This document shows, one piece after another, positions 14,076 through 37,187 of a DNA stretch of 43,646 nt. A program made the translations under genes and the position numbers. Source of the DNA: Rhodospirillaceae bacterium (GTDB lineage Bacteria; Pseudomonadota; Alphaproteobacteria; Rhodospirillales; UBA2165); contig JABIIH010000098.1 in assembly GCA_018649245.1 (NCBI GenBank), positions 1-43,646 of the forward strand, read 5' to 3'. Under the pieces are notes generated by a model. It worked only from the letters and a program-made list of their open reading frames with translations, searched no databases and was not told where the DNA came from. Positions within the stretch are counted from its first letter, which is position 1; the number at the start of each line of letters is the position of its first letter.

Positions 14076-14105
14076 GGACCACAGCGACGAGGAATCGTTA
14101 GTCGC

Positions 14106-20720: not shown

Positions 20721-21875
20721 CTATTTGTACGGATCAGCAGCATCTCTCAGGCCATCGCCAAAGAAATTAAAGGCCAGCACGGTAACAATCACCGGAATTG
20801 CCGGAAACAGTAACCACGGATAGACGGCGACGGCTTGGAAATTTTGCGCTTCGACCAATAATACGCCCCATGAGGTTACCGGTGGTCTTAAGCCCAGCCC
20901 AAGGAAACTCAAAGCGGTTTCAGCCAGGATCATTGACGGAATTGAAAGTGTTGCTGAGGCGATCAAATGGCTCATGAAATTAGGCAATAAATGCCGCGCA
21001 ATAATCCGCTTTGGCGGCGCCCCCATCAAGGCTGCCGCAGTACAGAAATCTTCCTCACGCAGCGCCAATAGTTTAGATCTGACGGCACGCGCCAGTCCCG
21101 GCCAATCAACCAGCCCTAAGATGATGGTGAGGCCAAAGAACACCGTGATGGCGCTCCAATCCTCCGGCATGGCGGCTGAAAGTCCCATCCACAATGGCAA
21201 TTCAGGTATCGAGCGCAGGATTTCGATCGTGCGTTGGGCGACATTATCGACCCAGCCACCGAAATAACCGGCTGCCCCGCCGATGGTGAGTCCAAGCAAA
21301 AAGCTAATGGCGATGCCGACCATACCAACGGTGAGCGAAATTCTAGCGCCATAGATCATACGCGACCAAATATCGCGCCCCAGCCGGTCGGTGCCTAGAA
21401 AAAAGAACGTGCCGCCATCAGCCGGACAAATCAAATGAAGATCGGCTTCAAACAGGTTCCAGAACTCATATTTATCGCCACTACAGAAAAAGCGGAGTTT
21501 TTGAATCCGGTTTGGATTGGGCGTGTAATCGCGCCTGAGAGTTTCCAGATTTAGCTTATAATCGAGGCCATAGACAAAGGGCCCTTCAAAGCCGTTATCG
21601 CTGAACAGATGAATCTGCTGCGGTGGCGCAAAAATATGATCGGTATGACGATTGAGCAGATCATAGGGAGCGATGAACTCGGTGATAAAGATCGACAGGT
21701 ATAAAACTGCCAGAACAGCACCGGCGGCAACGGCAATTTTGTGGCGCTTCAATCGCCACCACATCATACGCCACTGGGACGCCATATAGAAGCGTTCCTG
21801 CTCAGCCGATAGTTCCTCCACCTCCTGCGGGTTGAAGGGATCAGGCGAGACGAAATGTTCGAGTTTATCGCTCAT
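20721..21875 (-). CDS. ABC transporter permease, peptide/opine/nickel (Dpp/Opp/YejE-like) family
   Basis: Multiple TM segments and the binding-protein-dependent permease EAA-type loop (ALMGAPPKRIIARHLLPN). Its start overlaps the upstream permease stop by 4 nt. Confidence 0.85.
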   Translation of the reverse strand: MSDKLEHFVSPDPFNPQEVEELSAEQERFYMASQWRMMWWRLKRHKIAVAAGAVLAVLYLSIFITEFIAPYDLLNRHTDHIFAPPQQIHLFSDNGFEGPFVYGLDYKLNLETLRRDYTPNPNRIQKLRFFCSGDKYEFWNLFEADLHLICPADGGTFFFLGTDRLGRDIWSRMIYGARISLTVGMVGIAISFLLGLTIGGAAGYFGGWVDNVAQRTIEILRSIPELPLWMGLSAAMPEDWSAITVFFGLTIILGLVDWPGLARAVRSKLLALREEDFCTAAALMGAPPKRIIARHLLPNFMSHLIASATLSIPSMILAETALSFLGLGLRPPVTSWGVLLVEAQNFQAVAVYPWLLFPAIPVIVTVLAFNFFGDGLRDAADPYK

Positions 21876-22867
21876 TTGCGCGTGCCCTCCAGTCGAATAC
21901 GAGGATCAAGCACCGCTAGCAGCAGATCGGAAATAAACATCCCAACCACGGTTAGGAGCGAAACAAACAGCAGGAATGAGCCGGCCAGGAACATATCTTG
22001 GCTCGTGAGAGCATCGAGAATAACCGGCCCAGTCGTCGGCAAATCCATGATCACGGCAACGATAACAGCGCCCGAGATGACTTGCGGCAACAGGTTACCA
22101 ATGTCGGCAATGAATGGATTGAGGGCCATGCGCAGTGGGTATTTCAGCAGCAATTTCCCTTCCGGCAGACCTTTCGCCCGCGCTGTTACGACATATTGTT
22201 TGTGCAGCTCATCAAGCAAATTGGCCCGCAACCGCCTTATCATGCCAGCCGTTCCCGAAGTCCCGATAACCACCACCGGAACAATCAAATGCTCTAGCAG
22301 CGACAGTATTTTATCGAACGTCCACGGCTGGTTTTCGAAAGATGGATCAACCAGGCCACCAATCGAAGTACCAAAATATTTACGCGCCAAGAACATTAAA
22401 ATCAGCGCCAGCAGAAAGTTTGGCGTCGCCAGTCCAATAAACCCGACAAAGGTAAGTCCGTGATCACCCCAGCTGTATTGATGGGTCGCTGAATAAACGC
22501 CGATCGGAAAGGCAACAATATAAATAAAAACGATAATGCTAAAATTGAGAATAAGCGAAAATACAAACACTTCACCGATGACTTCCGTGACCGGCAAATC
22601 AAATTCGATCGAGCGACCGAAATCACCCTGCACAACGCCACCAATCCAAGAAAGATATTGCAGCCAAACTGGCTTATCGAGACCAAACTCTTCTTTTAAA
22701 TACGCAATTTTCTGAGGATCGACCGCCTCGCCTTGGCTTTCCAGCTCAGCAATATAGCTGGTCAGATAATCTCCTTCGGGCAGTTGAATAATGACGAATA
22801 CCAATGCGCTGACAACCAGCAACGTCAGGATCATCGTCAAAATCCGGCGGGCGAAATAATTAAGCAT
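21872..22867 (-). CDS. ABC transporter permease, peptide/opine/nickel (Dpp/Opp/YejB-like) family
   Basis: The N-terminus MLNYFARRILTMILTLLVVSALVFVIIQLPEGD is typical of DppB/OppB/YejB. The EAA-type loop reads YVVTARAKGLPEGKLLLKYPLRMALNP. Confidence 0.85.
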   Translation of the reverse strand: MLNYFARRILTMILTLLVVSALVFVIIQLPEGDYLTSYIAELESQGEAVDPQKIAYLKEEFGLDKPVWLQYLSWIGGVVQGDFGRSIEFDLPVTEVIGEVFVFSLILNFSIIVFIYIVAFPIGVYSATHQYSWGDHGLTFVGFIGLATPNFLLALILMFLARKYFGTSIGGLVDPSFENQPWTFDKILSLLEHLIVPVVVIGTSGTAGMIRRLRANLLDELHKQYVVTARAKGLPEGKLLLKYPLRMALNPFIADIGNLLPQVISGAVIVAVIMDLPTTGPVILDALTSQDMFLAGSFLLFVSLLTVVGMFISDLLLAVLDPRIRLEGTRK

Positions 22868-22872
22868 GGGGT

Positions 22873-24798
22873 CTAATTCAACTTTCTTTTTGTATTCTTC
22901 GCACTAAACCAGAATTGATCGGGACGATAGACGCCAAAATGCGCGCCGGGATCCCAATTATAAATTGCTACTTTCGGCACATTTCTTAAATTCTTTTTGG
23001 TCACAACTACCTGCGGCACACTGGATATGATACCAATCGAAAAAAGCTGATTGGTGTATATGTCAAGCATCTCAGTCCAAATACGATGGCGCTCGTCTCG
23101 GCTCGTGGCGCCAGCCCAAACTTTATTCAGCTCGGCCAATTTAACCGCCAGCGGCATATCAGTTTTCTCTCCAGCCCGGCCACGGGTTTCAACATGCTGG
23201 CCCCATTTTGGCCATTGCAATTGTTGCTGACTGGTTGGCGCCAGCTCCTGCGGGCTCGAATCCGGGCTTGGAATTCCGTTCTCCAAACCGAACCACATCG
23301 ACATTTTAACCAGACCACTAAATATCCGATTGCGTAAAACATCGCGCTGCATCGGTTTTAAGAACAGTTTGATGCCAATATTGCGCCATGAATCACGGAT
23401 TAGTTCCATCACATCGGAGGGCTCGGATTCTTCGGTCGAAAATACCACCGTCAATTCCAGCCGTTTGCCGTTCGGCAATAGCCGGATACCGGCCGGTGTT
23501 TTTTTGGTCAGCCCCATTTCATCAAGCAATGCATTGGCGCGTTTTATATCAAATGTCGCCCAACGTTTTTGAAACTTTGGTTGATAGAGCGGGCTTTCCG
23601 GCAACACCGTATTATTGCCTTCCCGCGCCAAACCATAATAAATCACCTGGTTGATCTCACGGCGATTAATACCGAGTGACATGGCCCGTCTAAACCGTAC
23701 ATCCCGGAATAGTTTACGCCACACCGGGTCTTGCACTGTCAAATTGGGGAACAATGCCCAGCGCGAGCCTTTGGCGGTTCGCCACAACAGGGTCGAGAAA
23801 CCAGATTGCTTTTCCGATTGTTTGAGTGCCGTAACGTTACTGAAATTGAGTCCACGGGCCTGCAGATCGCTCTCGCCGCTGCCGGTTTTTATCGGGATCA
23901 ATTTGTTGTTGGTCACATTCATCCGGACTTCATCGATATAAGGCAGCTGCCGGCCTTTAGCATCGATCCGATAATAATAAGGATTGCGCTTGAAGGCAAA
24001 ACGCTTGGCCGGTGGCTTGGTGGCTAACATCCAGGGCTGCAGGGTCGGCAAATCCGGATTGGCATTTTTATATTGCTGGCCGACGGCATAATGAAGGGCC
24101 ACCCAATTGCGTTTTTTAGCCGCTTTTACTTGTGCCTGCAAAGTCGCAGCATCGGTATATTTGGCATGGTACTTTTTCATATAATGAGCTGGCCGGTAGA
24201 GATATAACGGCCGTGCGCCCGCTAAACGGGGTAGGAAGAACGGATTTGGCTTGGACCAGCTATAGCGGATGGTAACATCGTCAAGCACCTCAAATTTCGC
24301 CCGTTCACCATCAACGATTAAAGCCGCCGGCGGACTTTCGTTGCGGACTTCAGTATTGGTCGCAACATCTTCCCAGTAATAGCGGAAATCTTCCGCGGTG
24401 AATGGATGCCCATCCGACCATTTATGGCCAGCTCGCAAATGAAGCGTAAAAATACGCCCTTCCTTAACGTCAAGCTTAGCCAATATATCCGGCTTGATGT
24501 TAAAGCTTTGATCGTACCCGGCCAATCTCGCATAACCATAAACCACCATTTGGCGGGTGTCTTTTTTGCGGCCCATAAGAATATTGAGTCGGCCACCGTG
24601 GCGTCCAGGTTCAACACCCTCTCCGGTAAAGTTTACAACTGACGGATTTTTCGGAATACGCTGGGCTACTGGCGGCAACTTGCCGGCTTCAACATCAGTC
24701 TTCAGGCTGGGTGTTTCGACGAGATCCATCGCCCGGGCTGAAGTAATCGGCAATGATACTAAAATAGATAATAGGCTGATTAAAAAAGATTTTTTCAT
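22873..24798 (-). CDS. ABC transporter substrate-binding protein, family 5 (YejA/OppA-like), secreted
   Basis: Signal peptide MKKSFLISLLSILVSLPITSARA. At 641 aa it has the size and pattern of family-5 SBPs (WSDGHPFTAEDFRYYW). Confidence 0.85.
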   Translation of the reverse strand: MKKSFLISLLSILVSLPITSARAMDLVETPSLKTDVEAGKLPPVAQRIPKNPSVVNFTGEGVEPGRHGGRLNILMGRKKDTRQMVVYGYARLAGYDQSFNIKPDILAKLDVKEGRIFTLHLRAGHKWSDGHPFTAEDFRYYWEDVATNTEVRNESPPAALIVDGERAKFEVLDDVTIRYSWSKPNPFFLPRLAGARPLYLYRPAHYMKKYHAKYTDAATLQAQVKAAKKRNWVALHYAVGQQYKNANPDLPTLQPWMLATKPPAKRFAFKRNPYYYRIDAKGRQLPYIDEVRMNVTNNKLIPIKTGSGESDLQARGLNFSNVTALKQSEKQSGFSTLLWRTAKGSRWALFPNLTVQDPVWRKLFRDVRFRRAMSLGINRREINQVIYYGLAREGNNTVLPESPLYQPKFQKRWATFDIKRANALLDEMGLTKKTPAGIRLLPNGKRLELTVVFSTEESEPSDVMELIRDSWRNIGIKLFLKPMQRDVLRNRIFSGLVKMSMWFGLENGIPSPDSSPQELAPTSQQQLQWPKWGQHVETRGRAGEKTDMPLAVKLAELNKVWAGATSRDERHRIWTEMLDIYTNQLFSIGIISSVPQVVVTKKNLRNVPKVAIYNWDPGAHFGVYRPDQFWFSAKNTKRKLN

Positions 24799-24799
24799 C

Positions 24800-26713
24800 T
24801 TAGGATGCCTTTCTCAATTCAGCGCCGTCACCAGCAACGCGGACAAAATGCTGGTCGGCAATTTCCATCAATTGGGCATCGGCATCACCGTTTAAGGTAA
24901 AGGGAGCCGGCCAAGCTGCAGGCACCGAAGCCTTGCCTTCCATCAAGGCATCAAAATCCAATTGACGGTCAGGATCGGGATACGGCACAGCGGCTAAAAG
25001 GGCTTTGGTATAGGGATGAATTGGGTCTCGGAATAGAATTTCCCGGGGCGCGACTTCGACCAACCGGCCAGCGCACATAACGGCTATATTGTCAGCAACA
25101 TAATCGACCACGGCCAAATTATGAGAAACAAACAAATAGGTGAGCCCAAGCTCTTCCTGCAGGTCTTTCAAGAGATTTAGAATTTGCGCCTGAATAGATA
25201 CATCAAGGGCTGAAACCGGTTCGTCACATAACAACAGTTCAGGTTTTAAGGCTAACGAGCGCGCAATGCTAATCCGCTGGCGCTGTCCGCCGGAAAAACT
25301 ATGAGGATAGCGATTGAGGAAGCGTGGATCGAGACCAACCAAATTCATCAGCTCTTTCACCATCTCAATGCGATATGCAGCGTCGCCAATTTTATGAATA
25401 TCCAATGGTTCACTGACGATATCAAATACTGTCATCCGTGGGTTAAGCGACCCAAATGGGTCTTGGAAGACATACTGATATTTGGTCCTGAACGGAATTA
25501 ATTCAGCGCCGCTTAAATTGGTTAAATTAACGTCGGTGCCGGCGTCATTAAAGATTACCTCACCGGTATCAGGCTTCAATGCGCGCATAATAATTTTACT
25601 GAGGGTGGTTTTACCGCAGCCGCTTTCACCCACCAGGCCCAGTGTCGTGCCGCGCTGAATATCAAAGCTTACATCGTCCACGGCTTTTATCGTATCGTGG
25701 CCGGAGCCAAACATGCCGCCTTTGCGGATGCTGTATGATTTGGAAATATTACGCACGCTTAAAAGTGGCCGCGTATCAGCAGCGTCAATTTCCGGACGTT
25801 CATCAGGTTCCAATAGATGACCGGTGGTATGCTCAATCTCGCGGATCGGCACTAGGCGCTCACCCGGCTTCATATCAAAATGCGGCACTGCGCGCAGCAA
25901 TGATTGGAGATAAGGATGGGATGGCGCACGGTAAATATCGTCTTTCGTCCCGGCTTCGGTAATTCTGCCGTTATACATCACCACAATTTCATCTGCGATA
26001 TTCGCCACTACTCCCAGGTCATGAGTAATAATGAGCACTGCCATTTCTAAATCGGTTTGCAGGTCGGCAATCAATTTCAATATTTGGGCTTGAATCGTCA
26101 CGTCCAAAGCCGTGGTTGGCTCATCGGCGATCAACAAGGCCGGGCGACAGACGAGCGCCATGGCGATCATAGCACGTTGACGCAATCCGCCGGAAAGCTC
26201 AAAAGGATAAGTATCGAGCGCTTTTTTCGGATCTGGAAAACCTACGACCCGCAACATTTCTTCAACCGCTTCATAGGCAGTAGGTTTATTTACATCACTA
26301 TGCAGCAGCATTGCCTCGCTAATTTGATTGCCGATGGTATGCAGCGGTGACAGCGACGTCATTGGTTCCTGGAAAATCATTGAAATACGGCCGCCACGAA
26401 TGGCTTGCATGGCTTTGCCGTTGCGATCCAACTCGGCGATGTTAGTGGCCCCAAAACGACGTTCCGGACTTACATGCAATTCTGAGCGCTGCGGATCAGC
26501 AAACAAAATTTCGCCGCCGGTAATCATTGCCGCTTTCGGCAAAATTCCCATGATGGCTTGCGCAATCGTCGATTTACCGGAACCAGATTCGCCAACAATG
26601 GCGACCGTAGACCCTGGCTGCACCCGAAAAGAGACACCGGCAACGGCCTGCACTGTCCCAGAGGGCACCTGAAACTCAACGGATAAATTGTTTACCTGCA
26701 ATAGTTCATTCAT
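24800..26713 (-). CDS. ABC transporter ATP-binding protein with two fused ATPase domains (YejF-like)
   Basis: NBD1 carries GESGSGKST, LSGGLRQR and LLIADEPTTALD. NBD2 carries GESGCGKTT, FSGGQRQR and LLLCDEPVSALD. Confidence 0.9.
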   Translation of the reverse strand: MNELLQVNNLSVEFQVPSGTVQAVAGVSFRVQPGSTVAIVGESGSGKSTIAQAIMGILPKAAMITGGEILFADPQRSELHVSPERRFGATNIAELDRNGKAMQAIRGGRISMIFQEPMTSLSPLHTIGNQISEAMLLHSDVNKPTAYEAVEEMLRVVGFPDPKKALDTYPFELSGGLRQRAMIAMALVCRPALLIADEPTTALDVTIQAQILKLIADLQTDLEMAVLIITHDLGVVANIADEIVVMYNGRITEAGTKDDIYRAPSHPYLQSLLRAVPHFDMKPGERLVPIREIEHTTGHLLEPDERPEIDAADTRPLLSVRNISKSYSIRKGGMFGSGHDTIKAVDDVSFDIQRGTTLGLVGESGCGKTTLSKIIMRALKPDTGEVIFNDAGTDVNLTNLSGAELIPFRTKYQYVFQDPFGSLNPRMTVFDIVSEPLDIHKIGDAAYRIEMVKELMNLVGLDPRFLNRYPHSFSGGQRQRISIARSLALKPELLLCDEPVSALDVSIQAQILNLLKDLQEELGLTYLFVSHNLAVVDYVADNIAVMCAGRLVEVAPREILFRDPIHPYTKALLAAVPYPDPDRQLDFDALMEGKASVPAAWPAPFTLNGDADAQLMEIADQHFVRVAGDGAELRKAS

Positions 26714-27210
26714 GCTGGCTGCCCACTCTCAGGTATCCTGATATTAAGCGCGTCTATATTGCGCAGCGTCGCACTACTCAATTCCAACTTATTCTGCATC
26801 GCTGCGCGAACGGAGTTGAGAACAACCTGTTCAAAATCGGACAAATTAGACTCAAAGCGAAAGGTATGACCGGCGCCTTTTAGACGTAACTGCATCCACC
26901 CATTACCGCCGCTCCGCCAAGTCGTAAAATATGACAGCGAAAGATCGGTGAGTTTTTCCCAGGGAATAGCTCGATACTTAAAAATCTTCATCGTAATCTT
27001 TTGTTCATCCAATTCTATGCGTGCAAATTGGCGGCACAATGTCCGCAATCCATAAAGCGCAAATAAAGCCGCGCAACCAAGCAGGATTAGCACACCGCCA
27101 GCAGCTTTCGCCCCTAATACATAGGGAGCAAAACAAAAATTAAACCCCACAAAAGCACGAAAATAATCGGCTCGAAGATTGACGAGGGAATAGCCGTGAT
27201 TCGTTATCAT
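26710..27210 (-). CDS. Hypothetical membrane protein (two TM segments plus a possible bacterial PH-like domain)
   Basis: Hydrophobic segments FVGFNFCFAPYVLGA and GGVLILLGCAALFALYGL are followed by a beta-rich region (IELDEQKITMKIFKYRAIPWEKLTDLSLSYF...GWMQLRLKGAGHTFRFES). It starts 1 nt after the upstream stop and overlaps the downstream ATPase start by 4 nt. Confidence 0.55.
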   Translation of the reverse strand: MITNHGYSLVNLRADYFRAFVGFNFCFAPYVLGAKAAGGVLILLGCAALFALYGLRTLCRQFARIELDEQKITMKIFKYRAIPWEKLTDLSLSYFTTWRSGGNGWMQLRLKGAGHTFRFESNLSDFEQVVLNSVRAAMQNKLELSSATLRNIDALNIRIPESGQPA

Positions 27211-27211: not shown

Positions 27212-30200
27212 TTATTGAGCCTTAGGCCGTTCCTTTATTGTATGTACATTACTATTATCGGCCTGCAAAGCAGGTAAATCGTGATCACCATTAATATTTT
27301 CCAGCGATCTCGCTTGAAATTCCCAATTTTCAGATAATTGAAAGCTTTGCTCATCTATTTTAATCGGTTCTGTCATACTTTTAACGATTCTACTGGCCAA
27401 TAGATCTACGGCATTTACTTCCGCAATCGGACTGACAATAAACGCAATGGTCATATCCTCGATTCGAGCTGCGATGTCGGTCTCACGCATGCACGCACTT
27501 ACCCGATTGGCGACTTCCCGTAATAACCGGTCACCAACATCATCGAGCATCGCGCTGTTCAGATTAAAGTTCTTTTCAATATCAAACCACATTAACGCCG
27601 ATAATTCTTTATACCGCTCATTGCGCGCAATTATATTATTCAAGCGATCCGTAAACAGGCGTCTGTCAGGCAGATTAGTTATTGCATCACGAACCGTCGA
27701 GGCGTCGCTGAGATCCCGTGTCGTGCGCTCTAGGCGATCGGCAACCGAACGGGTCACCCTCGCACTCATATCGACATCTTCTGAAATCAATTTAAAGAAC
27801 ACATCTTTTGAAATGCTCATGACATTCAGATTGCTGGCAGCCTTGATCGTTGCGGTTCTTGGTGCGTCACACAACAAGGCCAATTCACCAAACAAATCAT
27901 TTTTCTTCATGGTGACTAGAGTTTTCGGGCCATCTAGAGTTTCTAGAATGACATCTGCTTCACCGCCAACGATGACATAGGCTTTATCGCCAACTTCACC
28001 TTGCTCGAACACAGTTTCACCGGCGTTATATTCATAGCGTTCACTGGCAAAGGAGAGCAATTTCAATCTTGAGCGGTCGAGGCCGCCAAATAGAGGTACG
28101 CTGGCAAGAACATCAATTTCATCGCCGAACCCGCCTTCGGCCCGGGTTTCTTCGACCGGTTGCTCGACTGATTCAGTTTTAACCTCGTCACCTTGAACGG
28201 CAACTTTACCGCCGGCGATAGAATAAATTTGGTCAAACGGCACATCGACTTCAATTTCACTCGGCACAAATAACAGGCTTTTACCTTCCTGTTCCCGGCG
28301 AATACTGTTCAAGACATTTGCCTGACTTTCGCCATCCAATCCCGTCAACGCTTCGTTCATAACAAACATGTCAGGTTGTTTGATCATGCCGCGGGCGATG
28401 GCCAATTTTTGGCGCTGGATATTTGAAAGTCGAGCACCAGCATTACCGACTTCGAAATTCAGACCTAAGCCAATAATTTCTTCGCGTAAGCCGGTCTCCC
28501 TAATAACCGCGGCCATTAATTCACCCACAGCATCAGCACTTTCAGCCCGTTCGCTGGCCAATTTGCCAAATAAAATATTATCCTGAACCGAGCCCGCCGA
28601 ATTGAAATTCTCGGTATCAAAAAACTCAACCGCGGCGCTAAGATTCTCTGGCAAATTGTCACAAAAGACCGTGCGCGCTTCCAATAGCTGCAGAGCAAAA
28701 TCATCTTCGATCAGACCAAGGTGATGACGCGCTGGTATTAACTTGAAGGGTAAGGCAATTAAATGTGCCCGGTCTTCATCGCTGATACTTTCAATACCAT
28801 TTTGAGTTATGCGATTTAAGAGAGCTTCAAATTCCGGCAAATCTTCGGCGCTAATGAAACTAAAACGTTCAAAAAATTCGTGATCAGCTGGCAGACCGCG
28901 GAATAAATCGACCATAATTTCCGCCAAGCGGTGTCCCTTGGTTAGGAAATCATTGCTTAAACCACATTTCTCAAGCACCTCCAAAACATACGCATTCTCA
29001 CCGAGTGCATCAATTTCAAATTCCTCACCCACCGGGGTGCCAAATAAAATATTTTCCGCCACCGACGCGTTGGTATTGAATTTTTCTTGTTCAAAGGATT
29101 CAACAAAACCGGAAATTTCCGCCTCGTCCAATTGCTGGCGCAAAATTTTTCTGGCCGACAATAATTTGCCTGCCAAATCCGGGCTACTATTATGATCAAC
29201 AGTTTGGCGCAGACCAATCTGATAAACATCATCTTCCAGGCCAACCTGCGCCAAATAGTGAATTTCTTTTTGCGTTAACGCCGCCTGATCTTCGGCACCG
29301 ACCATTGCCATATCGACCCAATCCGCTTGAATGTCATATGGACTGTTGCCGGAACCAATTGAATCGGCAACAAACCTAGCCCGCGTGGATTTCTCTTCAT
29401 CTGAATAACCGGCCTCTCTCATTGGCCGGTGTTTAAGGCCATAAAGTAAATTATCGCGGATGGTGCCTGAAAATATATAAGGCTCTTGGCTAACATAAGA
29501 GAATTTTCGACCGGTCACAGCTTCCGGCATGTCGGTAACATTTTGCTCACCCAAGGTGATGCGGCCACCTGATGGCGATAATAGACTTGTCATTAATTGG
29601 GACAACTCCCCCTTACCGCTACCCGGCGCGCCAACCAGCGCGACATGCGACGGCAAATCCATCGACATGGATGCGCCATCGATTACCCGCAGACCATCAT
29701 CCTCGATCCAACTGATATTTGCCGCCATCAATTTACCTTCAAGCGTCGGCAAATCTTCAACGTCGAGCTTTTGCTGATCCTCGTCAATCAGTTCGGGGAT
29801 TTCAAATTTCTCAATCAACTGCTGGTATTTGATCTTGGAATCTTCCAGCCGCTGATAATAGGTCAGCAGCATTTTCCAAGGGGCGGAAACATCTTTGTAG
29901 GCACTCAAAACGGCAATCAAGGCACCCATGGTTATGTCGCCGTTGATAACAAGCAATCCACCAATGGAGAAAAAGAAAAATGGTGTCAGCAGAGCAAGGA
30001 AGTTGTTGATAAATTTTATAAAGAATTTCTTCTGGTAGATTTGATAGCGAATATTATAGATTCGACCGAGGCGATCAGATAAATCCGCCAACTCATATTG
30101 CGAGGTATCATTGGCATGTATCTCATGTGCGCCGGACACTGTTTCACCAATGCGCTCAGACAGGCGGCGCACTGTTAAGACGCGTTCCTTGCCGAGTAAA

Positions 30201-30793
30201 TTTACTTTCTTTTGTAATTTCGGAATTAAATAACCCTGCAATGGATAAAGCGCTATAGCCGCCAGACCAAGCTTCCAATCCTGAACGAACATAAAGACCA
30301 TCAAGGTAACTAATGTGCCGCCCTGATAAGAAGGTAAGGACAATGCTTCGCCAAAGAAACCACCGAGCGGCTCGGTTTCCAAGGTAACCATAGAGACGAC
30401 TTCACCCTGAGAAGTTTTTCGAAATTGTGGTAATGGAAATCTGAGAACGCGTTCTAAAAGCTGAAAGCGGAGGCGGCGCAGCATCCGCTCACCTGCAGCA
30501 CCACGATAGACATTAATAAAATATTTGAAGCCACCATTGACGAAAACTAAAAGCAGAAAAAGACCACAGAGCGTTAACAAATAGGGGACCTGCTCTAACT
30601 CCATGCCCAAATAGTTTTTAGGAAAAGCAAGTTCTTTACTACCGCTTTTACCGCCTAGCGCGTCATCAATGATCTGTTTTGGCAGCGCGAGATAAATAAA
30701 ATAAAACGGCAGAGATGCACCAGCCAGAATTCCAAGAAACAATTGTTCTTTTTTGCTGTAGCGCAAAACGTATTGGAAAATGCCTTTATCCAT
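27212..30793 (-). CDS. Multidomain protein: ABC-exporter transmembrane domain, atypical ABC ATPase domain, cNMP-binding domain and degenerate GGDEF domain
   Basis: TMD at aa ~1-320. Walker A GAPGSGKGE at aa 388-396, Q-loop VSQEP, signature-like LSNIQRQ at aa 789-795, and Walker B-like DMFVMNEALTGLD. The cNMP cassette FGELALLCDAPRTATIKA lies within the cNMP domain (aa ~895-1010). The GGDEF-like domain at aa ~1030-1160 (DAITNLPDRRLF, GDRLLREVA) has RETD followed by EDMTI in place of GGDEF. Confidence 0.8.
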   Translation of the reverse strand: MDKGIFQYVLRYSKKEQLFLGILAGASLPFYFIYLALPKQIIDDALGGKSGSKELAFPKNYLGMELEQVPYLLTLCGLFLLLVFVNGGFKYFINVYRGAAGERMLRRLRFQLLERVLRFPLPQFRKTSQGEVVSMVTLETEPLGGFFGEALSLPSYQGGTLVTLMVFMFVQDWKLGLAAIALYPLQGYLIPKLQKKVNLLGKERVLTVRRLSERIGETVSGAHEIHANDTSQYELADLSDRLGRIYNIRYQIYQKKFFIKFINNFLALLTPFFFFSIGGLLVINGDITMGALIAVLSAYKDVSAPWKMLLTYYQRLEDSKIKYQQLIEKFEIPELIDEDQQKLDVEDLPTLEGKLMAANISWIEDDGLRVIDGASMSMDLPSHVALVGAPGSGKGELSQLMTSLLSPSGGRITLGEQNVTDMPEAVTGRKFSYVSQEPYIFSGTIRDNLLYGLKHRPMREAGYSDEEKSTRARFVADSIGSGNSPYDIQADWVDMAMVGAEDQAALTQKEIHYLAQVGLEDDVYQIGLRQTVDHNSSPDLAGKLLSARKILRQQLDEAEISGFVESFEQEKFNTNASVAENILFGTPVGEEFEIDALGENAYVLEVLEKCGLSNDFLTKGHRLAEIMVDLFRGLPADHEFFERFSFISAEDLPEFEALLNRITQNGIESISDEDRAHLIALPFKLIPARHHLGLIEDDFALQLLEARTVFCDNLPENLSAAVEFFDTENFNSAGSVQDNILFGKLASERAESADAVGELMAAVIRETGLREEIIGLGLNFEVGNAGARLSNIQRQKLAIARGMIKQPDMFVMNEALTGLDGESQANVLNSIRREQEGKSLLFVPSEIEVDVPFDQIYSIAGGKVAVQGDEVKTESVEQPVEETRAEGGFGDEIDVLASVPLFGGLDRSRLKLLSFASERYEYNAGETVFEQGEVGDKAYVIVGGEADVILETLDGPKTLVTMKKNDLFGELALLCDAPRTATIKAASNLNVMSISKDVFFKLISEDVDMSARVTRSVADRLERTTRDLSDASTVRDAITNLPDRRLFTDRLNNIIARNERYKELSALMWFDIEKNFNLNSAMLDDVGDRLLREVANRVSACMRETDIAARIEDMTIAFIVSPIAEVNAVDLLASRIVKSMTEPIKIDEQSFQLSENWEFQARSLENINGDHDLPALQADNSNVHTIKERPKAQ

Positions 30794-30924: not shown

Positions 30925-32073
30925 TTAATTTATCCAAGCTTTTATCAGCCCAGCTGTCGTATCTGCTCCATTCATATTCAGCTCGTTAAGACCGTCAAGC
31001 GGTTGTTCAACTGCCGCATTTATTGTATTTGCGAGCCCGTCAATGGTCAATTCATCTTCAGGAATTTGGCGAATAAGTCCGCGCTCCGCTAATAGGCGTG
31101 CCCGCAGCGTCTGCTCGGTCTCATGTCCCCCAGCATAAGGTACGACGATACCGTTAGCCTTAGTGAGAAGGATTTCCATCAACGTATTGTAGCCCGCTTG
31201 TGAAACCGAAAGATGACAATTTTTAAGCAGTGTCACGAAATCAGAACGCGCGCGTTCTATCATAACTCCGGGCACTTCTTCTGCCTTTAGCGAATTAAAA
31301 ACTGCATCAGACATGCTGTAGCCTACAAGAATACGCCAAGTTCGATCCGCAACCGTTGTCAAGGACCGAGCCTTCAAGGAAGTCCTGAGCAAATTCTCAC
31401 CTACCGCGCCACTGCCCGATGAAACGATAATTTCTTCGCTGCCCTGATCACCTGCCGCTTTCATCGCCAAGTCTTTTTCCACCACATAGCCGGTGTAGTG
31501 CAACATGTCCTTGATATCTGCGGCCCGCCTAAAGGTGTTCTCGAACGGAATAAGCGCAGCATCACCGTGGATCAGAACATCGTCAAAATAGCTACGTGCC
31601 GTTTCCACCATTTCGACATCGCGCTGCGGTTTGTTCTTTTCGACCAGGATATCGCGCACCGAACATACGATGTGAGGACGCGGCGTGGCTTTGCCGGCAG
31701 CCTCTAATAAGGGGATCAGTTCAAACCGCAACTGCCGGCGGCCAAAGGGATAAAGCTCAATTATCAAAACATTTGGTTGAATTTCCTGGAAAATCTCAAG
31801 CAGCTTTTGTTTGCGCATCTGTTTTAAATCTTCATCCACCGGATTGCCCTCGGCATCAACCAGGCCATCAAAACTCCGGTCATTTGCTTTAACCGATGGC
31901 AGTTGGACAAAAGTCATACCACTGCTATCCAATACCGGGACATCTTCACCGCCCGAGATTACCGTCACCTCGAGCCCTGCGGCCGTCATGGCGCGGGCCA
32001 GAGTAGCTGCCCTTTTGACATGACCAATGCCCAGCAAATGCTGAACATAAAACAGGACTTTTGGCTTACTCAT
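30925..32073 (-). CDS. Predicted GT-B glycosyltransferase (COG4671 / MurG-like family)
   Basis: The N-terminus KVLFYVQHLLGIGHVKRAATLARAM is the pattern I associate with COG4671 predicted glycosyltransferases. It is a paralog of the 35054..36292 product. Confidence 0.6.
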   Translation of the reverse strand: MSKPKVLFYVQHLLGIGHVKRAATLARAMTAAGLEVTVISGGEDVPVLDSSGMTFVQLPSVKANDRSFDGLVDAEGNPVDEDLKQMRKQKLLEIFQEIQPNVLIIELYPFGRRQLRFELIPLLEAAGKATPRPHIVCSVRDILVEKNKPQRDVEMVETARSYFDDVLIHGDAALIPFENTFRRAADIKDMLHYTGYVVEKDLAMKAAGDQGSEEIIVSSGSGAVGENLLRTSLKARSLTTVADRTWRILVGYSMSDAVFNSLKAEEVPGVMIERARSDFVTLLKNCHLSVSQAGYNTLMEILLTKANGIVVPYAGGHETEQTLRARLLAERGLIRQIPEDELTIDGLANTINAAVEQPLDGLNELNMNGADTTAGLIKAWIN

Positions 32074-32659
32074 ATTTGGTCATTTCGAGATTTAATTCAT
32101 GGACGGATAATTTCCCGGCTGCATCAAGCTTGAACATCTGCGCGCAGCCATCCAACAACTTAACCGGCGGTTTGTTGACCATGTCCCAATCTATGGCGGC
32201 GGCGTAAAGAGCACGAATAACACCTTTGTGGACAACTGCTATGGTGGGCTGACCATGTTCCGCGATTTCGGTTAGCAACGGTGCAATTCGGACTTGCACC
32301 TCGCGCGGGCTTTCACCCTTGGGTCCGCGAAAATCCAAACCTTTAGCTTCCCAGGCCGCCATCAAATCTCCGTGCTCTTCGCGAAGATCTTTTAAGGTCC
32401 GCCCTTCCCACTCACCCCACGCCATTTCAACCAAGCGATGATCGGTTTCGGGTTCGCTGCCGGAAAGTATTGTCGCGGTCTCAAAGGCGCGTTTTAACGG
32501 ACTGGCTAGCCAACGAAACCCAGCTAGCTCTTTTGGCATTATCCAGCCACCGACTTCAGCCCGGCCAGTATCATTAAGCGGGACATCGGTGCTGCCTTGC
32601 ACCAATCCGGTGGCATTCCATTCGGTCGTGCCATGACGAATAAGGGCAAGCAGTGTCAT
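32066..32659 (-). CDS. Histidine phosphatase family protein (phosphoglycerate-mutase-like)
   Basis: Contains the catalytic RHG motif (LALIRHGTTEWN), a downstream SPLKRAFETA and VVHKGVIRAL. Size is 197 aa. Confidence 0.8.
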   Translation of the reverse strand: MTLLALIRHGTTEWNATGLVQGSTDVPLNDTGRAEVGGWIMPKELAGFRWLASPLKRAFETATILSGSEPETDHRLVEMAWGEWEGRTLKDLREEHGDLMAAWEAKGLDFRGPKGESPREVQVRIAPLLTEIAEHGQPTIAVVHKGVIRALYAAAIDWDMVNKPPVKLLDGCAQMFKLDAAGKLSVHELNLEMTKYE

Positions 32660-33771
32660 TGGATTAAAGCTCTCAAAGTTTGGTCCAGGGTTTTGGCAGC
32701 CGCCTCAATGGAATGCTCATTTCGCACTATTTTAATAGCCGCCTCAGACATTTCTTTTCGTTCAACTTGGCCAGTTAACAGATCGCTCACTTTAGCAGCG
32801 AAATCCACGGCATTGCCAACCTCGCATAAGAGACCGGTCTCACCAGCGCGGATAATATCGGCGACGCCACCGGTCGCGCCCGCAATTACTGGCAGCCCCA
32901 TCGCTTGCGCTTCCAGCATGGCCATACCGTAGGCTTCGTTGACGGCGGGCCAAACAAATAAATCGCAGCCGGCCAAAATCGGGCTTATTTCATTTTCCGG
33001 TAACTCACCAAGGAAAACTACGCGATCCGTCCCGAGATGAGATTCAACCTGAGCTCTCGCCGGACCATCGCCAATAACCAGCAGCTGCCAGTCTGACGTT
33101 TTAATGTTCTTTAAGGCCTGACCCAACACTTCATAAGACTGAAGCTTGGCATCGTCGCGCATCATCGCCACAGTAACCATCATAGGTAAATTTGGCTCGA
33201 GTTGATGGCGCTCGACAAGTTCGGCTCTAGCTTTTGCACCGTCTATGAGGGACGGCATTTTCATAAATGGCTTTAAAGATATCAGTTTGCTCGGGTCTTT
33301 CATAACCGGCAAGACGCAGACGCTATCCAGCGAATTTAAACTGATGATCGCATCGGCGTGCTGAATAATATCGCCTAACACCCGATGGCTCATATCCCAC
33401 GGCCCACCGGCACGCTTGGGCGCGTAGGATACTTCGGCCGCGACGTACGGAATATTAAGCGCTTTTGAAACCAGCGGGCCAATCCAATCCATCGCTTTAT
33501 AATATAGACGATAAGTAAACCAGATATCCGGACATTGAGCAGAATCGGTATATTGAGCAATCAACTCTTCAGCAATTTTGTGGCCTTCTGATTGCAACTT
33601 CTTTTGTGCTGCCAAATCACCCGTAGGCTCCCGTGCCTTCAATTCTGAGGCGATTTCAACTTCGTGTCCGCAGATTTTCAACGCCTCAATAAGAGAGCGG
33701 GCAACACGCCGGTCGCCGGAAGGCACTTCAGAATTCGGCGATTTCATGGGGGCGTAAAAAGCAACCTTCAT
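32656..33771 (-). CDS. Glycosyltransferase family 4 (GT-B, Glycos_transf_1)
   Basis: The C-terminal domain pattern EAYGMAMLEAQAMGLPVIAGATGGVADIIRAGETGLL is EX7E-type. Confidence 0.8.
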   Translation of the reverse strand: MKVAFYAPMKSPNSEVPSGDRRVARSLIEALKICGHEVEIASELKAREPTGDLAAQKKLQSEGHKIAEELIAQYTDSAQCPDIWFTYRLYYKAMDWIGPLVSKALNIPYVAAEVSYAPKRAGGPWDMSHRVLGDIIQHADAIISLNSLDSVCVLPVMKDPSKLISLKPFMKMPSLIDGAKARAELVERHQLEPNLPMMVTVAMMRDDAKLQSYEVLGQALKNIKTSDWQLLVIGDGPARAQVESHLGTDRVVFLGELPENEISPILAGCDLFVWPAVNEAYGMAMLEAQAMGLPVIAGATGGVADIIRAGETGLLCEVGNAVDFAAKVSDLLTGQVERKEMSEAAIKIVRNEHSIEAAAKTLDQTLRALIQ

Positions 33772-35033
33772 GCCACTTGGTCTACATCTTTGTTTTGTGG
33801 CCGCTCGGCTGCCAAATCAAACAGTGGGTACAATTTAGTCATACAGGATTTGAAATCAAAGGAAGTACGGACGTTTTCCGCTCCGGCCTCGCCTAGTTTT
33901 GCCCGATGCTGGGGATTCTGGATCAGCACGGTTAGTTTTTCCGCCAGCATTTTAATGTTACTGGGCTCGACCAGCAGACCCGTGGCTTCATTTTCGATCA
34001 GCTCTGGGATCGCGGATACAATCGTGGACAGACACGCCAAGCCTTGTGACTGGGCTTCCATCAAAACATTTGGTAGGCCATCTCGGTCACCATTGCCAGC
34101 CACCAGACTGGCGAGCACGAAAAAATCAGCTTCTTGGTATTGCACCGTGACTTCTTCCTGAGATTGCGAACCCAGCCAAGTAATACGGTCTGCAATCCCC
34201 CACCCTGCCGCGGCGCGCTTTAATTTATTAATCAGCGGCCCGCCGCCAACATGGACGAGATGCCAATTGAGGTCTTTTGGCAAGAGCGCCAGTGCCGCCA
34301 GCAAATCTGCATAACCTTTTTTTTCAACCGCGCGGCCAACCGATAATATTCTAACCGGATCATCTGCGTTAGCGCCATTGCGGTCGCTATAGTCAATCTG
34401 GCGGGCCGGAAAGCGTTGTAGATCTATGCCATGATAGGCCAGCGTTACTTTATTCTTTTGTTCAGTAATTGACGCCAAATAGCTTTGGTTCACTTCTGTA
34501 CACGTTACCGCCCATGAGCATTCTTTTAATTTGTCGCGCAAATCCCACTCGGGCGTGGTCCAGATATCAATAGCATGGGCCGAGCAAGACCATGGCAGGC
34601 CCTTAAGTATCGCAGCGTAACGCGTAACCGAAGAAGGTGTATGCAAAAAATGAGCGTGCAGATGCTCTATGTTGTCAGACAACTCCGCCGCCAGAACCAG
34701 CGCCTGACCAAACCGCCTGACCCGATTGAACGAGCGGTCACGGGCCAAATCCCGCTTCCATAATTGATAGACTTTTTGATAGGACGCCCAGCCGCGAACT
34801 TGACGCCAGGCCCGCCAAACACGGCCTATTTCCTGATACAGGTACTCCGGCAGATAACTAACCGGTGCGGTAATTTCAGCGTGAATGGGGTGGGTTTTAG
34901 TATCGGTCGGATGGCGCAGCGATACTATTTGTAACGGCAGGCCATGTTTCTCGAGCTCGCGAATTTCCTGCGCGATGAAAGTCTCGGAGAGACGCGGGTA
35001 ACCTTTGAGAATAATCGCTGTAGCTTTGGCCAC
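33768..35033 (-). CDS. Glycosyltransferase family 4 (WcaL-like)
   Basis: N-terminus ILKGYPRLSETFIAQEIRELEKHG and C-terminal LPNVLMEAQSQGLACLSTIVSAIPELIENEATGLLV. Confidence 0.8.
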   Translation of the reverse strand: MAKATAIILKGYPRLSETFIAQEIRELEKHGLPLQIVSLRHPTDTKTHPIHAEITAPVSYLPEYLYQEIGRVWRAWRQVRGWASYQKVYQLWKRDLARDRSFNRVRRFGQALVLAAELSDNIEHLHAHFLHTPSSVTRYAAILKGLPWSCSAHAIDIWTTPEWDLRDKLKECSWAVTCTEVNQSYLASITEQKNKVTLAYHGIDLQRFPARQIDYSDRNGANADDPVRILSVGRAVEKKGYADLLAALALLPKDLNWHLVHVGGGPLINKLKRAAAGWGIADRITWLGSQSQEEVTVQYQEADFFVLASLVAGNGDRDGLPNVLMEAQSQGLACLSTIVSAIPELIENEATGLLVEPSNIKMLAEKLTVLIQNPQHRAKLGEAGAENVRTSFDFKSCMTKLYPLFDLAAERPQNKDVDQVA

Positions 35034-35053
35034 GAGTACCTCGTGCTATGTTG

Positions 35054-36292
35054 CTATCGACCTACAACAGCGAGATCAGCAGAACTTTCGCCAGTACGTT
35101 TTCTATCAAGATGCTTGCCAGCCAAGCGGCTGATATTCGGTAAGCCATCCAGCAGACCAGGCAACACAACATTCGAAGGCGGATATTGTTGAGTTAACTG
35201 ACGCAACGCCGTTATCATCAAAGATGTATTACGAATTCCGTCATCATTCAACAACGACATCAACCCCAATTCCTGGGCTCTTGAAGCACGTATGTATTGC
35301 TCCAACCTCGGCTGTGTTCGGGGAATGATCAGGCCCGGCTTATTAAAAGATAGAATTTCACAGAAAGTATTGTAGCCACCCATCGCGATGACACCGACCG
35401 CATTTTTCATCAAATGCTCAAAATGGGCATCAAAAGTGATGGCATCGACCTGATCCAATTTCTCAATCCGCTCTAGAAAATTCTCCTGGGCCTCGGTTTG
35501 CATAAAGGGGCCAAAGACAAGAAGAGACGGATGGGGAATAGATTCTCCTGTTTCGTAAGCCCGCAGCACCCAATCGATTAGCGCCTCACCATCACCGCCA
35601 CCGCCTGCGGTCACCAAGTAATATGGCTGTTCCGTCACAGAAGCAGAAACACTGGCTGCCGCATCCGGCACGCCATAGCGCAGATAACCAGTATAGACGA
35701 TTTTGCGGCGTACTGATTCTGGCAGATCAACGCCGGTTAGTGGATCATACACCTGCGGTAATCCATAAACCCACAATTCATCATATAGGTCTTCCAACGC
35801 AGGCAGGACGTTTTTGCGTTCCCATTCCGGCACCAGTAATGCCGGTTCATCCATGACATCCCGGAGACCAAGCACCAATGAGGTGCCGCGCTGTTTTAAC
35901 ATCTGCAGGGTTTCTGCCACTTCACCGCGTAGACCTAATGGCTCTTTATCAACAATAAATATGTCAGGATCAAAAACATCCGCCGTATGCTGGATGATGG
36001 AACCACGCAACTCCATGGTTTTCTCAATATCCAAATGCAGATTAAGCGGCGTGTAATCACCATTGCGCAATTTAATAACGCCCGGCACCCGGACAAAGTC
36101 AACGCGCGCGCGGAAATCAAAACTACCGATGATCGGCGAGCCGGAAAGAATGAGCACGGAAAGTTTGTTATAGGAGCCTACCAAGTAATGCGCGATTGCC
36201 CGGCACCGCCTAAGGTGGCCGAGACCAAAACTATCGTGACTATAAATCAGGACACGGTAATCGTCCCGCTTGGTAACACTCTGGCTGGTCAT
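35054..36292 (-). CDS. Predicted GT-B glycosyltransferase (COG4671 / MurG-like family)
   Basis: N-terminus RVLIYSHDSFGLGHLRRCRAIAHYL, and C-terminal AMGGYNTFCEILSFNKPGLIIPR, which is a MurG-like nucleotide-sugar-binding pattern. Confidence 0.6.
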   Translation of the reverse strand: MTSQSVTKRDDYRVLIYSHDSFGLGHLRRCRAIAHYLVGSYNKLSVLILSGSPIIGSFDFRARVDFVRVPGVIKLRNGDYTPLNLHLDIEKTMELRGSIIQHTADVFDPDIFIVDKEPLGLRGEVAETLQMLKQRGTSLVLGLRDVMDEPALLVPEWERKNVLPALEDLYDELWVYGLPQVYDPLTGVDLPESVRRKIVYTGYLRYGVPDAAASVSASVTEQPYYLVTAGGGGDGEALIDWVLRAYETGESIPHPSLLVFGPFMQTEAQENFLERIEKLDQVDAITFDAHFEHLMKNAVGVIAMGGYNTFCEILSFNKPGLIIPRTQPRLEQYIRASRAQELGLMSLLNDDGIRNTSLMITALRQLTQQYPPSNVVLPGLLDGLPNISRLAGKHLDRKRTGESSADLAVVGR

Positions 36293-36450
36293 TTTTCCCC
36301 CGAGCCATAACTTTCTTGTAAATTAAGGCTACTATTGCACGTAAATACCACACTCGAAAAGAGAAATTTAATCAATTTTGAGCGTTAATATGTGGAGTAT
36401 CGCCAAAGATCAAGGTAACCTAAACATTTGAAACAGTTAGGTATTGTCGA

Positions 36451-37182
36451 TTGTTGAACAAAATTTCGCTTTTATGCCCATCGCGTGGCCGCCCCAATGA
36501 CATGGAGCGCTTGATTAAGAGTGTTGCTGCGACGGCAACTGAGCCATCTCGTGTCGAAATTTTACTTTATGTCGACGATGATGACCCAGAAAAAATAAAT
36601 TACCTGGTCAGCCATAAAAATCTGTCAGTTGATCCCGCGGTAGGGCAACTTTTAAATGTTGATCTGCTCGTCGATGAACCGCTGACAACGCCTCTCATCA
36701 ATAATATTTTAGCCGACCGCGCCCAGGGTGATATTTTAATAATCACCAATGATGACCAAATATTTGTCGATAAAAATTGGGATGTCAGGATAGACCAGGA
36801 AGCCTCTAAGTATCCGGACGATATCTATTGTATGTGGTTCAATGATGGTCGCTATCAGGAAAAAATATGCACTTTTCCAATTCTCAGCCGCAAATGGGTT
36901 GATACTCTCGGCTATATTGAGCCATTTTTATTTGAGCATTTTAATTGTGATTTATGGACTTGGCAGATCGGCCAGATGATCGACCGACTCCATTACATCC
37001 CGGATATCCTGGTCGAACATCTCCACCCCGATACCGGTAAAGCGGAAGCTGATGAAACGACAGAGCGCAATCTAAAAGGCGGCAGACCTGATCGTGACCG
37101 GGCAATATTTGCCAAATTTGAGCGTTATCGTGTACTCGATGCCTCATTGCTTAAAGACGTTATCGAGGCAGCAAAGAAATAG
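36451..37182 (+). CDS. Hypothetical protein, possibly a GT-A-fold glycosyltransferase
   Basis: ISLLCPSRGRPNDMERLIKSV...VEILLYVDDDDP and IITNDDQIF resemble the GT2 N-terminal strand and a DxD region. The start is a TTG. It is divergent from the glycosyltransferase operon. Confidence 0.4.
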   Translation: MLNKISLLCPSRGRPNDMERLIKSVAATATEPSRVEILLYVDDDDPEKINYLVSHKNLSVDPAVGQLLNVDLLVDEPLTTPLINNILADRAQGDILIITNDDQIFVDKNWDVRIDQEASKYPDDIYCMWFNDGRYQEKICTFPILSRKWVDTLGYIEPFLFEHFNCDLWTWQIGQMIDRLHYIPDILVEHLHPDTGKAEADETTERNLKGGRPDRDRAIFAKFERYRVLDASLLKDVIEAAKK

Positions 37183-37187
37183 CCGAC

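Follow-up and report, generated by a model that had tools for sequence, protein, structure and literature searches.

Five minus-strand genes at positions 30925 to 36292 of contig JABIIH010000098.1 (assembly GCA_018649245.1), analysed here over a stretch of 43,646 nt called the window and belonging to a genome (G000) that is 68.8% complete, probably form, on balance, the biosynthetic core of an alphaproteobacterial glycan cluster of the red/phazolicin-protecting polysaccharide (PPP) type in its majority, phosphatase-bearing form, with a glycan built in the cytoplasm, exported and its fragments retrieved. The cluster as a whole comprises about 11 genes for four glycosyltransferases (GTs), a histidine phosphatase (HP), an atypical ATP-binding cassette (ABC) exporter with a cyclic nucleotide (cNMP) sensor, a small membrane protein and an Opp-like importer. 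The red/PPP locus itself is already known, having been published for Sinorhizobium meliloti (PMC10128002). The present analysis adds counts across the class by which the phosphatase is part of the system, and the window adds a version of the cluster in which the exporter-like gene X is fused and relocated, no deacetylase is found and a phage-type GT-A gene is a neighbour.

The operon starts with GTa (35054..36292, 412 aa), a GT-B glycosyltransferase of the GT1/GT28-like COG4671 type, followed by the two GT4 glycosyltransferases GT4_421 (33768..35033, 421 aa, GTG start) and GT4_371 (32656..33771, 371 aa), the branch 1 histidine phosphatase HP (32066..32659, 197 aa), which overlaps the genes on both sides, and the second COG4671-type GT-B glycosyltransferase GTb (30925..32073, 382 aa). 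The open reading frame (ORF) coordinates agree with the first-pass annotation, which had described this order of GT, GT4, GT4, phosphatase and GT with junctions of +20, -4, -4 and -8 nt, and a spacing of 131 nt to an ABC/cNMP/GGDEF gene, here X (27212..30793). With a maximum 19-residue Kyte-Doolittle mean of 1.39, hydrophobic segments are absent from all five proteins, so a cytoplasmic location of the five enzymes is predicted. Among the 39 window ORFs scanned, no genes for Wzx, Wzy, Wza, a priming transferase or nucleotide-sugar synthesis were found, as had been noticed from the sequence at the outset; equally, no parts of Wzx/Wzy-, Wzm/Wzt- or synthase-type loci (flippase/polymerase, ABC-2 pair, GT2 synthase, outer-membrane export, priming) are present among them. 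A promoter and terminator scan of 30600-37300 gave 7 sites against 8.7 and 9 against 7.5 in shuffles, that is, no excess, and does not bear on where the operon is bounded.

Both GT4 proteins match Glycos_transf_1 (GT4_421 with 111.3 and GT4_371 with 103.7 bits, cut-off 26.4), while the sole Pfam match of GTa and GTb is Glyco_tran_28_C (28.2 and 40.8 bits, respectively, cut-off 22). GTa and GTb are distant paralogues over their full length (23% identity, E 2e-15). The AlphaFold2 (AF2) model of GTa, with a predicted local distance difference test (pLDDT) value of 76.7 and a predicted template modelling score (pTM) of 0.78, matches the GT-B folds of plant UDP-glycosyltransferases (UGTs, GT1), macrolide GTs and MurG (E about 1e-12, template modelling (TM) score 0.48-0.63). 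GTb scores 25 bits against a cut-off of 250 with the MurG equivalog; both proteins are members of the clan, yet not MurG. The COG4671 label initially given to the outer GTs stands, as their S. meliloti orthologues are so labelled in PMC10128002, whereas the label 'WcaL-like' for GT4_421 is weak, with 97 bits against 537.6 for the WcaL and 149 against 400 for the EpsE equivalog; in fact, none of the GT4 equivalogs WcaL, EpsE, BshA and MshA is reached by either middle GT. The nearest solved sequences are PimB' (top match) and BshA for GT4_421, and BshA, MshA and PimB' for GT4_371, with the match of the latter being limited to the donor-binding half.

All four GTs have orthologues in the S. meliloti red/PPP locus (smb21252-smb21271), each aligned over at least 95% of the query, with GTa corresponding to redA (SMb21264, about 50% identity), GT4_421 to redB (SMb21265, 53-54%), GTb to SMb21266 (41%) and GT4_371 to SMb21252 (41%, E 1e-80). 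GTa homologues of about 50% identity are located on chromids of Sinorhizobium, Ensifer and Rhizobium (274 plasmid records). Besides the transferases, the locus shares the exporter homologue SMb21269, 35% identical to X over 74-77% of the length of X, and the four importer genes SMb21260-63 with 49-63% identity. In S. medicae and S. meliloti, the four importer genes are followed by GTa, GT4_421, GTb, a methyltransferase, X and a 154-aa cNMP-binding protein. SMb21252 stands 14 kb upstream, next to a deacetylase gene and one for an MscS-type channel. The GTa-GT4_421-GTb region of strain 1021 spans pSymB 837144-840736, and the positions of the orthologues agree with Data Set S1 of PMC10128002, where SMb21264 (redA, COG4671) is given at 837144-838358, SMb21265 (redB, GT4) at 838365-839612, SMb21266 (COG4671) at 839609-840796 and SMb21269 ('ABC exporter') at 842345-844435. 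On the other hand, the two loci differ in several respects. The cNMP domain, a separate 154-aa protein in S. meliloti, is fused to X together with GGDEF in the window, where X lies downstream of GTb. The window has HP between GT4_371 and GTb, whereas S. meliloti has none within 27 kb. S. meliloti possesses a deacetylase (SMb21253-type) and a lyase (SMb21259; Pfam Polysacc_lyase, with a signal-like N-terminus), of which the deacetylase is not found in the genus of the window and the lyase, searched for without positive control, in 0/41 relatives. No sugar dehydrogenase, methyltransferase or cyclase stands beside the window cluster, unlike in the S. meliloti locus.

A phenotype for this gene set is known from S. 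meliloti, where fitness with phazolicin requires nine genes between smb21252 and smb21271, with log2 fold changes (log2FC) of -3.5 to -5.4 upon transposon insertion sequencing (Tn-seq) as reported in PMC10128002. The sensitised genes include redA, redB, SMb21266, SMb21252, SMb21269, the deacetylase, the lyase and the sugar dehydrogenase, and the phazolicin minimal inhibitory concentration (MIC) is 8-fold lower for insertion mutants in smb21252 and smb21265 (PMC10128002). No phazolicin effect is reported there for the MscS gene, the metallo-beta-lactamase (MBL) hydrolase gene and SMb21255. Equally, Agrobacterium orthologues came up in a pyocyanin-sensitivity screen, as stated in PMC10128002. 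The name PPP was given provisionally to a presumed envelope polysaccharide from fitness and MIC data (PMC10128002). The concern raised at the outset, that the locus would match a known characterised pathway, is thus half borne out, as there is a match to a published locus, the product of which is chemically uncharacterised. Insertions in SMb21270, the small cNMP protein by the exporter, gave log2FC values of +1.09, +1.46 and +3.13, not significant with 5 TA sites (PMC10128002); a negative regulator would fit such raised fitness with phazolicin.

The same gene arrangement recurs far beyond the rhizobia. Three samples were analysed, namely a close set of 17 loci, each holding an HP orthologue, from genomes that share the genus, family or order of the window; a broader set of 80 loci returned, out of at least 590 relatives, upon alignment of GTa against species-representative genomes, with gene presence assessed by tblastn; and a class sample of 301 genomes drawn evenly across the Alphaproteobacteria (GTa at E at most 1e-60, HP at E at most 1e-22). 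In the close set, GT4_421, HP and GTb are present together in all 17 loci and GT4_371 in 15, with no room for it in L016 and L023 not being resolved by ORF calls. Within the cluster, conservation is highest for GTa, with identities of 57-96% among 11 orthologues. The broader set spans Azospirillum, Inquilinus, Reyranella, Marivibrio, Curvivirga, Caenispirillum, Dongiaceae, Stellaceae, Kiloniellales and others, and in the 58 loci that are assessable by having at least 5.2 kb downstream of GTa, GT4_421 was found 55, GT4_371 54, HP 53 and GTb 53 times. As all four recur in the same order in 51 of these loci, the gene arrangement is more than chance. The commonest order is a divergent X followed by GTa-GT4-GT4-HP-GTb-(deacetylase)-orf166-importer. 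The order on pAB510d of Azospirillum sp. B510 is X-importer-GTa-GT4-GT4-HP-GTb-deacetylase, and on the megaplasmid of Ruegeria sp. TM1040 importer-CoA transferase-MscS (opposite strand)-GTa-GT4-GT4-HP-GTb-deacetylase-methyltransferase. MscS-type channel genes adjoin the cluster in both S. meliloti (beside SMb21252) and TM1040. A plasmid copy of GTa in Azospirillum oryzae was discarded as an informative locus, being a lone gene beside transposases.

Co-occurrence leads to the same picture. In the class sample, GTa is present in 97 and HP in 91 genomes, with both in 88, GTa only in nine, HP only in three and neither in 201, and 72 of the 88 genomes have the pair on a single contig, no more than 5 kb apart; in the complete chromosomes G088, G257 and G304 the two genes are far apart, both being retained. 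This co-occurrence identifies the phosphatase as a core part of the system. Among 41 relatives (HP at E at most 1.2e-44, GTa at E at most 1e-20), 22 carry HP and 23 GTa, with both in 21, neither in 17 and one only in three. Two of the latter, G019 and G037, are represented by short contigs of 2.1 kb (ending inside GTb) and 2.3 kb (ending in GT4_421), and G027, an order-level relative, is a true variant. In G027 (L115, G027:C123, 11476-12669, minus in the locus), a gene for a cyclic-nucleotide-gated ion channel (Ion_trans and cNMP_binding) replaces GT4_371-HP and stands in opposite orientation between GT4_421 and GTb. In the genus of the window, only seven of 12 genomes, including its own, carry the cluster, which is therefore gained or lost as a unit.

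The embedded phosphatase had been set apart initially as a possible unrelated housekeeping enzyme, an explanation that has to be abandoned with HP present in 53 of the 58 assessable loci and alongside GTa in 88 of 97 genomes. HP is a branch 1 histidine phosphatase according to its His_Phos_1 score (140.6 bits, cut-off 21.7) and its catalytic residues, with the RHG motif at residues 8-10. As 12 orthologues share R8, H9, R57, E78, E85 and H144 without exception, and at least 90% of them G10, HP is considered intact and under selection. The nearest solved sequences, PhoE (54 bits), the phosphoserine phosphatase PspA (53), GpgP (4pz9; 45.6 bits, E 5.7e-11) and CobC (42), do not suggest a substrate, and an identity as CobC alpha-ribazole phosphatase (TIGR03162) was rejected with 110.2 bits under a cut-off of 162.9. 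Overlaps of 4 nt along GT4-HP-GTb are likewise annotated in Ruegeria sp. TM1040 and Azospirillum sp. B510, and the overlap of HP with both neighbouring genes in three orders suggests that HP may act between GT4_371 and GTb. A search for HP-GT fusions recovered the public 438-aa protein P0124, in which a C-terminal part resembling GT4_371 (45% identity) is fused to one resembling HP (60%); as a single sequence on a single contig with a junction that reads as out of frame, it was not accepted as a genuine fusion and may be a sequencing or gene-calling artefact.

Taken together, the four soluble transferases GTa, GTb, GT4_421 and GT4_371 would build a defined glycan from nucleotide sugars in the cytoplasm. 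HP, translationally coupled between GT4_371 and GTb, would remove a phosphate brought in by a phosphorylated acceptor or intermediate; judged by gene order, co-occurrence and the intact active site, its substrate might most simply be the product of GT4_371, with dephosphorylation freeing the next transferase to act. The finished or growing glycan may then cross the inner membrane via X under the control of a cyclic nucleotide and cyclic di-GMP (c-di-GMP), and the Opp-like importer, with a binding protein like oligosaccharide binders, may take fragments back, both steps being proposed from conserved synteny. In S. meliloti, the orthologous genes are required for keeping out phazolicin, a peptide antibiotic, as shown by the Tn-seq and MIC data of PMC10128002.

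The nature of the product is the point at which alternatives have to be weighed. The first-pass annotation had proposed a soluble glycoside on a phosphorylated primer, made in the way of GpgS and GpgP. In this proposal, the conserved in-operon phosphatase stands, whereas a GT81 glucosyl-3-phosphoglycerate synthase is not present, as the four GTs match only Glycos_transf_1-type and Glyco_tran_28_C models, and GpgP is not the nearest phosphatase, ranking under PhoE and PspA. More broadly, the product of the operon might be a compatible solute, the precursor of a thiol-like cofactor or another small soluble glycoside or oligosaccharide, made by a route resembling GpgS/GpgP, sucrose-phosphate synthase and phosphatase (SPS/SPP) or MshA/MshA2/MshB, with the transporters releasing and recapturing it. 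We regard this as rather unlikely. It draws on the nearness of GT4_371 to BshA and MshA, which glycosylate small acceptors, but these matches are limited to the donor-binding half and no GT20 or GT55 synthase accompanies the missing GT81. Exactly four GTs with 1:1 orthology across orders, without polymerase or chain-length genes, would suit a small product, but four transferases exceed the known solute pathways. The conservation of HP inside the operon counts in its favour, and the S. meliloti locus without HP against it. Cluster deacetylases of TM1040 and S. meliloti, the N-terminus of which is not signal-like, would allow deacetylation in the cytoplasm, like that by MshB or NodB, and the cluster always comes with an uptake system. 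An osmotic role would fit the ion channels that three lineages have within the cluster or next to it, of the MscS type in S. meliloti and TM1040 and cNMP-gated in G027. Against a soluble product, S. meliloti mutants lose an antibiotic barrier and the locus needs a polysaccharide lyase (PMC10128002), which bears a signal peptide. The orthologues there behave as makers of an envelope barrier glycan (PMC10128002), and the locus works without HP. The soluble product originally proposed is thus only partly supported.

The exported glycan is preferred over a soluble cytoplasmic glycoside because a deacetylase is encoded in related clusters and a secreted polysaccharide lyase in that of S. meliloti. 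The requirement for the secreted lyase in S. meliloti favours a polymer; readings with a small product are kept alive by the fixed complement of four GTs, a phosphatase and a deacetylase that are both cytoplasmic, the lack of polymerase and outer-membrane parts and the recurring channels. A bolder version of these, of similarly low probability in our estimate, is that a small oligosaccharide or glycoside is finished in the cytoplasm on a phosphorylated non-lipid acceptor by four single-addition transferases followed by the phosphatase, plus a cytoplasmic deacetylase in most lineages, with no surface polysaccharide being made; the ABC-like protein would be gated by cyclic nucleotide and c-di-GMP instead of being powered by ATP, and would release the product to the periplasm, with the importer retrieving it. 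If true, a third of the Alphaproteobacteria would possess a make-export-retrieve cycle under second-messenger control for a periplasmic protectant of a new class, which might be osmoregulated.

Export in the preferred glycan-cluster reading is assigned to X, a 1193-aa minus-strand fusion of ABC-exporter-like, cNMP-binding and GGDEF modules (Pfam ABC_membrane, ABC_tran, cNMP_binding and GGDEF). A homologue is present in the loci of all 17 close relatives, though L014 holds only a 16% fragment, and in 57 of the 68 broader loci with at least 4 kb upstream of GTa. The synteny of the fusion gene with the operon, for which a comparison across genomes had been advised, is thereby confirmed, and conserved synteny across orders equally shows the functional link that had been supposed between the operon and the adjacent transporters. 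In the family of the window, X has moved between GTb and orf166, with the cNMP and GGDEF domains fused. One relative (L021, G031:C37) carries two X-type genes, at 2267-5384 and 11498-15022, namely a divergent copy in two pieces (74% and 12% of the length) and a full-length fused copy downstream of GTb, as if between two arrangements. In the same-genus genome G009, the cluster is split between the contigs L014 (G009:C132) and G009:C7, with 7.6 kb of unrelated DNA after the 16% X fragment. The gene after X, orf166 (26710..27210, minus), encodes a small membrane protein of two helices (hydrophobic segments at residues 25-59) that shows a weak bacterial pleckstrin homology (PH)-domain signal (bPH_6 at E 0.02); as a conserved cluster member, it is found in 46 of the 53 loci with at least 8.5 kb downstream of GTa.

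The exporter-like fold of X also bears on a different assembly route, in which the transferases assemble an oligosaccharide on a lipid carrier (undecaprenyl phosphate primed elsewhere) or a membrane lipid, X flips it, HP trims a phosphate and the product decorates lipopolysaccharide (LPS), protein or periplasmic glucan. In line with such a route, X scores best with MsbA-, HepA-, PglK- and NdvA-type exporters, all under their cut-offs, GTa and GTb have a MurG-type C-terminal domain with MurG among the fold matches of GTa, and PimB', the top solved match of GT4_421, is a GT4 with a lipid acceptor. ABC-dependent pathways often use a priming enzyme encoded elsewhere; however, there is no priming transferase in the window and no match to the priming phosphoglycosyl transferase family PF02397 in G000, a 68.8% complete genome, nor is there a ligase or oligosaccharyltransferase in the cluster, and the conserved importer would be left without a role. 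This route is judged improbable, and somewhat more so than a small soluble product.

The importer of the Opp/Dpp type (20721..26713, minus) was identified by Pfam and NCBIfam models and comprises homologues of SMb21260-21263: a fused double ATPase (24800-26713), a family-5 binding protein (22873-24798) and two permeases (21872-22867 and 20721-21875). The double ATPase is encoded in 16 of the 17 close loci and in 44 of the 53 loci with at least 8.5 kb downstream of GTa. Nearest to the binding protein are 5ipw (3e-86), the pectin-oligosaccharide binder SPH1118 (5e-63) and the alpha-galactoside binder AgpA (2e-29), and it is far from peptide binders. It is very improbable that the importer supplies an oligosaccharide or peptide substrate, which the five enzymes then glycosylate, dephosphorylate or remodel in a salvage or catabolic operon. 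While GT and importer genes do share one direction and are separated by short junctions in the commonest arrangement, and peptide-uptake phenotypes are reported for the opt operon of Rhizobium etli, nucleotide-sugar glycosyltransferases are atypical of catabolism, and importer insertions in S. meliloti show no phazolicin phenotype (log2FC -0.41 to +0.53), whereas insertions in all four GT genes sensitise (PMC10128002). The relatives of the binding protein and the S. meliloti importer data suggest that the importer retrieves sugar fragments and does not feed the pathway.

Several observations weigh against the assignment of the five genes to an exported red/PPP-type glycan. The glycan product has been isolated from no carrier of the cluster so far. 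No NCBIfam curated cut-off is reached by any of the five operon enzymes and no curated family names a substrate. The HP match is missing in nine of the 97 GTa-positive genomes of the class sample; as the S. meliloti cluster has no HP orthologue within its 27-kb region, the phosphatase step is not universally needed, and as one relative keeps HP without GT4_371 (L016) and another GT4_371 without HP (L101), the pairing of these two genes is not strict. The cluster deacetylase, annotated as polysaccharide-deacetylase-family with no Pfam model matched and located directly after GTb in order-level relatives, is present in seven of 41 relatives; it was found neither in G000, with its limited completeness, nor in 11 other genomes of the genus. 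The S. meliloti-type lyase was found in 0/41 relatives in a search without positive control. With neither deacetylase nor lyase found, the sugar composition of S. meliloti is not transferable to the window. Finally, contigs at 99% identity or more from three runs of one marine metatranscriptome study cover parts of GTa, GT4_421 and X and the GT4_371/HP junction (32621-32810); contigs from RNA libraries show presence and are not proof of transcription, as DNA carry-over is possible.

Outside the conserved gene set, the divergent plus-strand gene orf243 (36451..37182, 243 aa, TTG start) had been proposed as a possible GT-A gene, and its model (pLDDT 94.3) does adopt a GT-A fold, matching TarP, TarS, WrtF and BcsA, with TarP, TarS and BcsA as the best Protein Data Bank (PDB) folds at E 1e-9 to 1e-8. 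It is a phage-type, GT2-like glycosyltransferase by its match to PHROG 14945 'glycosyltransferase' (E 7.6e-45), with no Pfam match at E 0.001, a weak GT2 match at E 0.087 (13.2 bits against 23.3) and homologues annotated as GT2 or BlmF-like. Present in the closest relative L012 and found in none of the 80 more distant loci checked, orf243 is a lineage-specific neighbour and not a conserved cluster member. Upstream of GTa, a second ABC importer (37188-41147, minus) consists of a PhnS2/T2/U2-like binding protein, a fused double permease and an ATPase; its position is kept in the family-level relatives L012, L017, L018, L019, L029, L031 and L033, and not in order-level ones. Beyond it, an AT-rich stretch (guanine and cytosine (GC) content 0.35 at 41001-42000) is followed by a 201-aa ORF with a fragment-length PPDK_N match (41000-42406), which may be a gene remnant. 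At the other end of the window, two tandem stand-alone cNMP-binding-domain proteins of 132 and 148 aa (455-853 and 863-1309, minus) adjoin two arylsulfotransferase-like genes (1377-3566).

The spread of the cluster, with a GTa orthologue in 97 of 301 genomes of the class including rhizobia, Azospirillum and roseobacters, contrasts with functional data that consist of S. meliloti fitness and MIC only. The window shows the majority, phosphatase-bearing form, whereas the S. meliloti locus that has been studied, without phosphatase, is atypical. Identification of the product would account for an envelope barrier that is widespread and directed against peptide antibiotics, perhaps also for part of symbiotic fitness, and would reveal what the cyclic-nucleotide-sensing ABC-like protein does.

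Among known systems, two further regions of pSymB can be set beside the red/PPP locus. The msbA2 operon (SMb21188-SMb21191) shares GTs beside an MsbA-like ABC exporter, and was rejected as the counterpart because it is another locus, with SMb21188 at about 938 kb and the orthologues of the window operon at 837-841 kb. The Clr-regulated nodP2-smb21248 cluster is adjacent but separate and not the same gene set. In Rhizobium etli, Vos and colleagues in 2007 (Environ Microbiol 9:1665) reportedly described the opt operon, an oligopeptide-type ABC importer with redA- and redB-like genes, as required for full symbiosis and stress resistance, and are said to have observed peptide-uptake phenotypes; this operon may correspond to the red/PPP-type cluster. 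With the mycobacterial GpgS/GpgP, the operon shares a branch 1 histidine phosphatase, GpgP being of the same type as HP, and the principle of a GT followed by a phosphatase on a phosphorylated acceptor. The thiol pathways of MshA/MshA2/MshB and BshA/BshB share a GT acting on a small acceptor together with a deacetylase, with BshA and MshA being nearest among solved sequences to GT4_371; the deacetylase of the red/PPP cluster is polysaccharide-deacetylase-family by annotation, which gives no indication of an LmbE type. None of the GpgS/GpgP, MshA and BshA pathways has a counterpart to the four GTs and two transport systems of the window. The Pel system (the GT4 PelF, the deacetylase PelA and the degenerate-GGDEF c-di-GMP receptor PelD), one of the exopolysaccharide machines gated by second messengers, shares cytoplasmic GT4 chemistry without lipid-carrier genes, a GGDEF-type inner-membrane protein beside GTs and a deacetylase, the latter in most versions of the red/PPP-type cluster. 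In place of export parts of the PelG, PelE, PelB and PelC type, on the other hand, the window possesses an ABC-exporter fold, a dedicated importer and a phosphatase.

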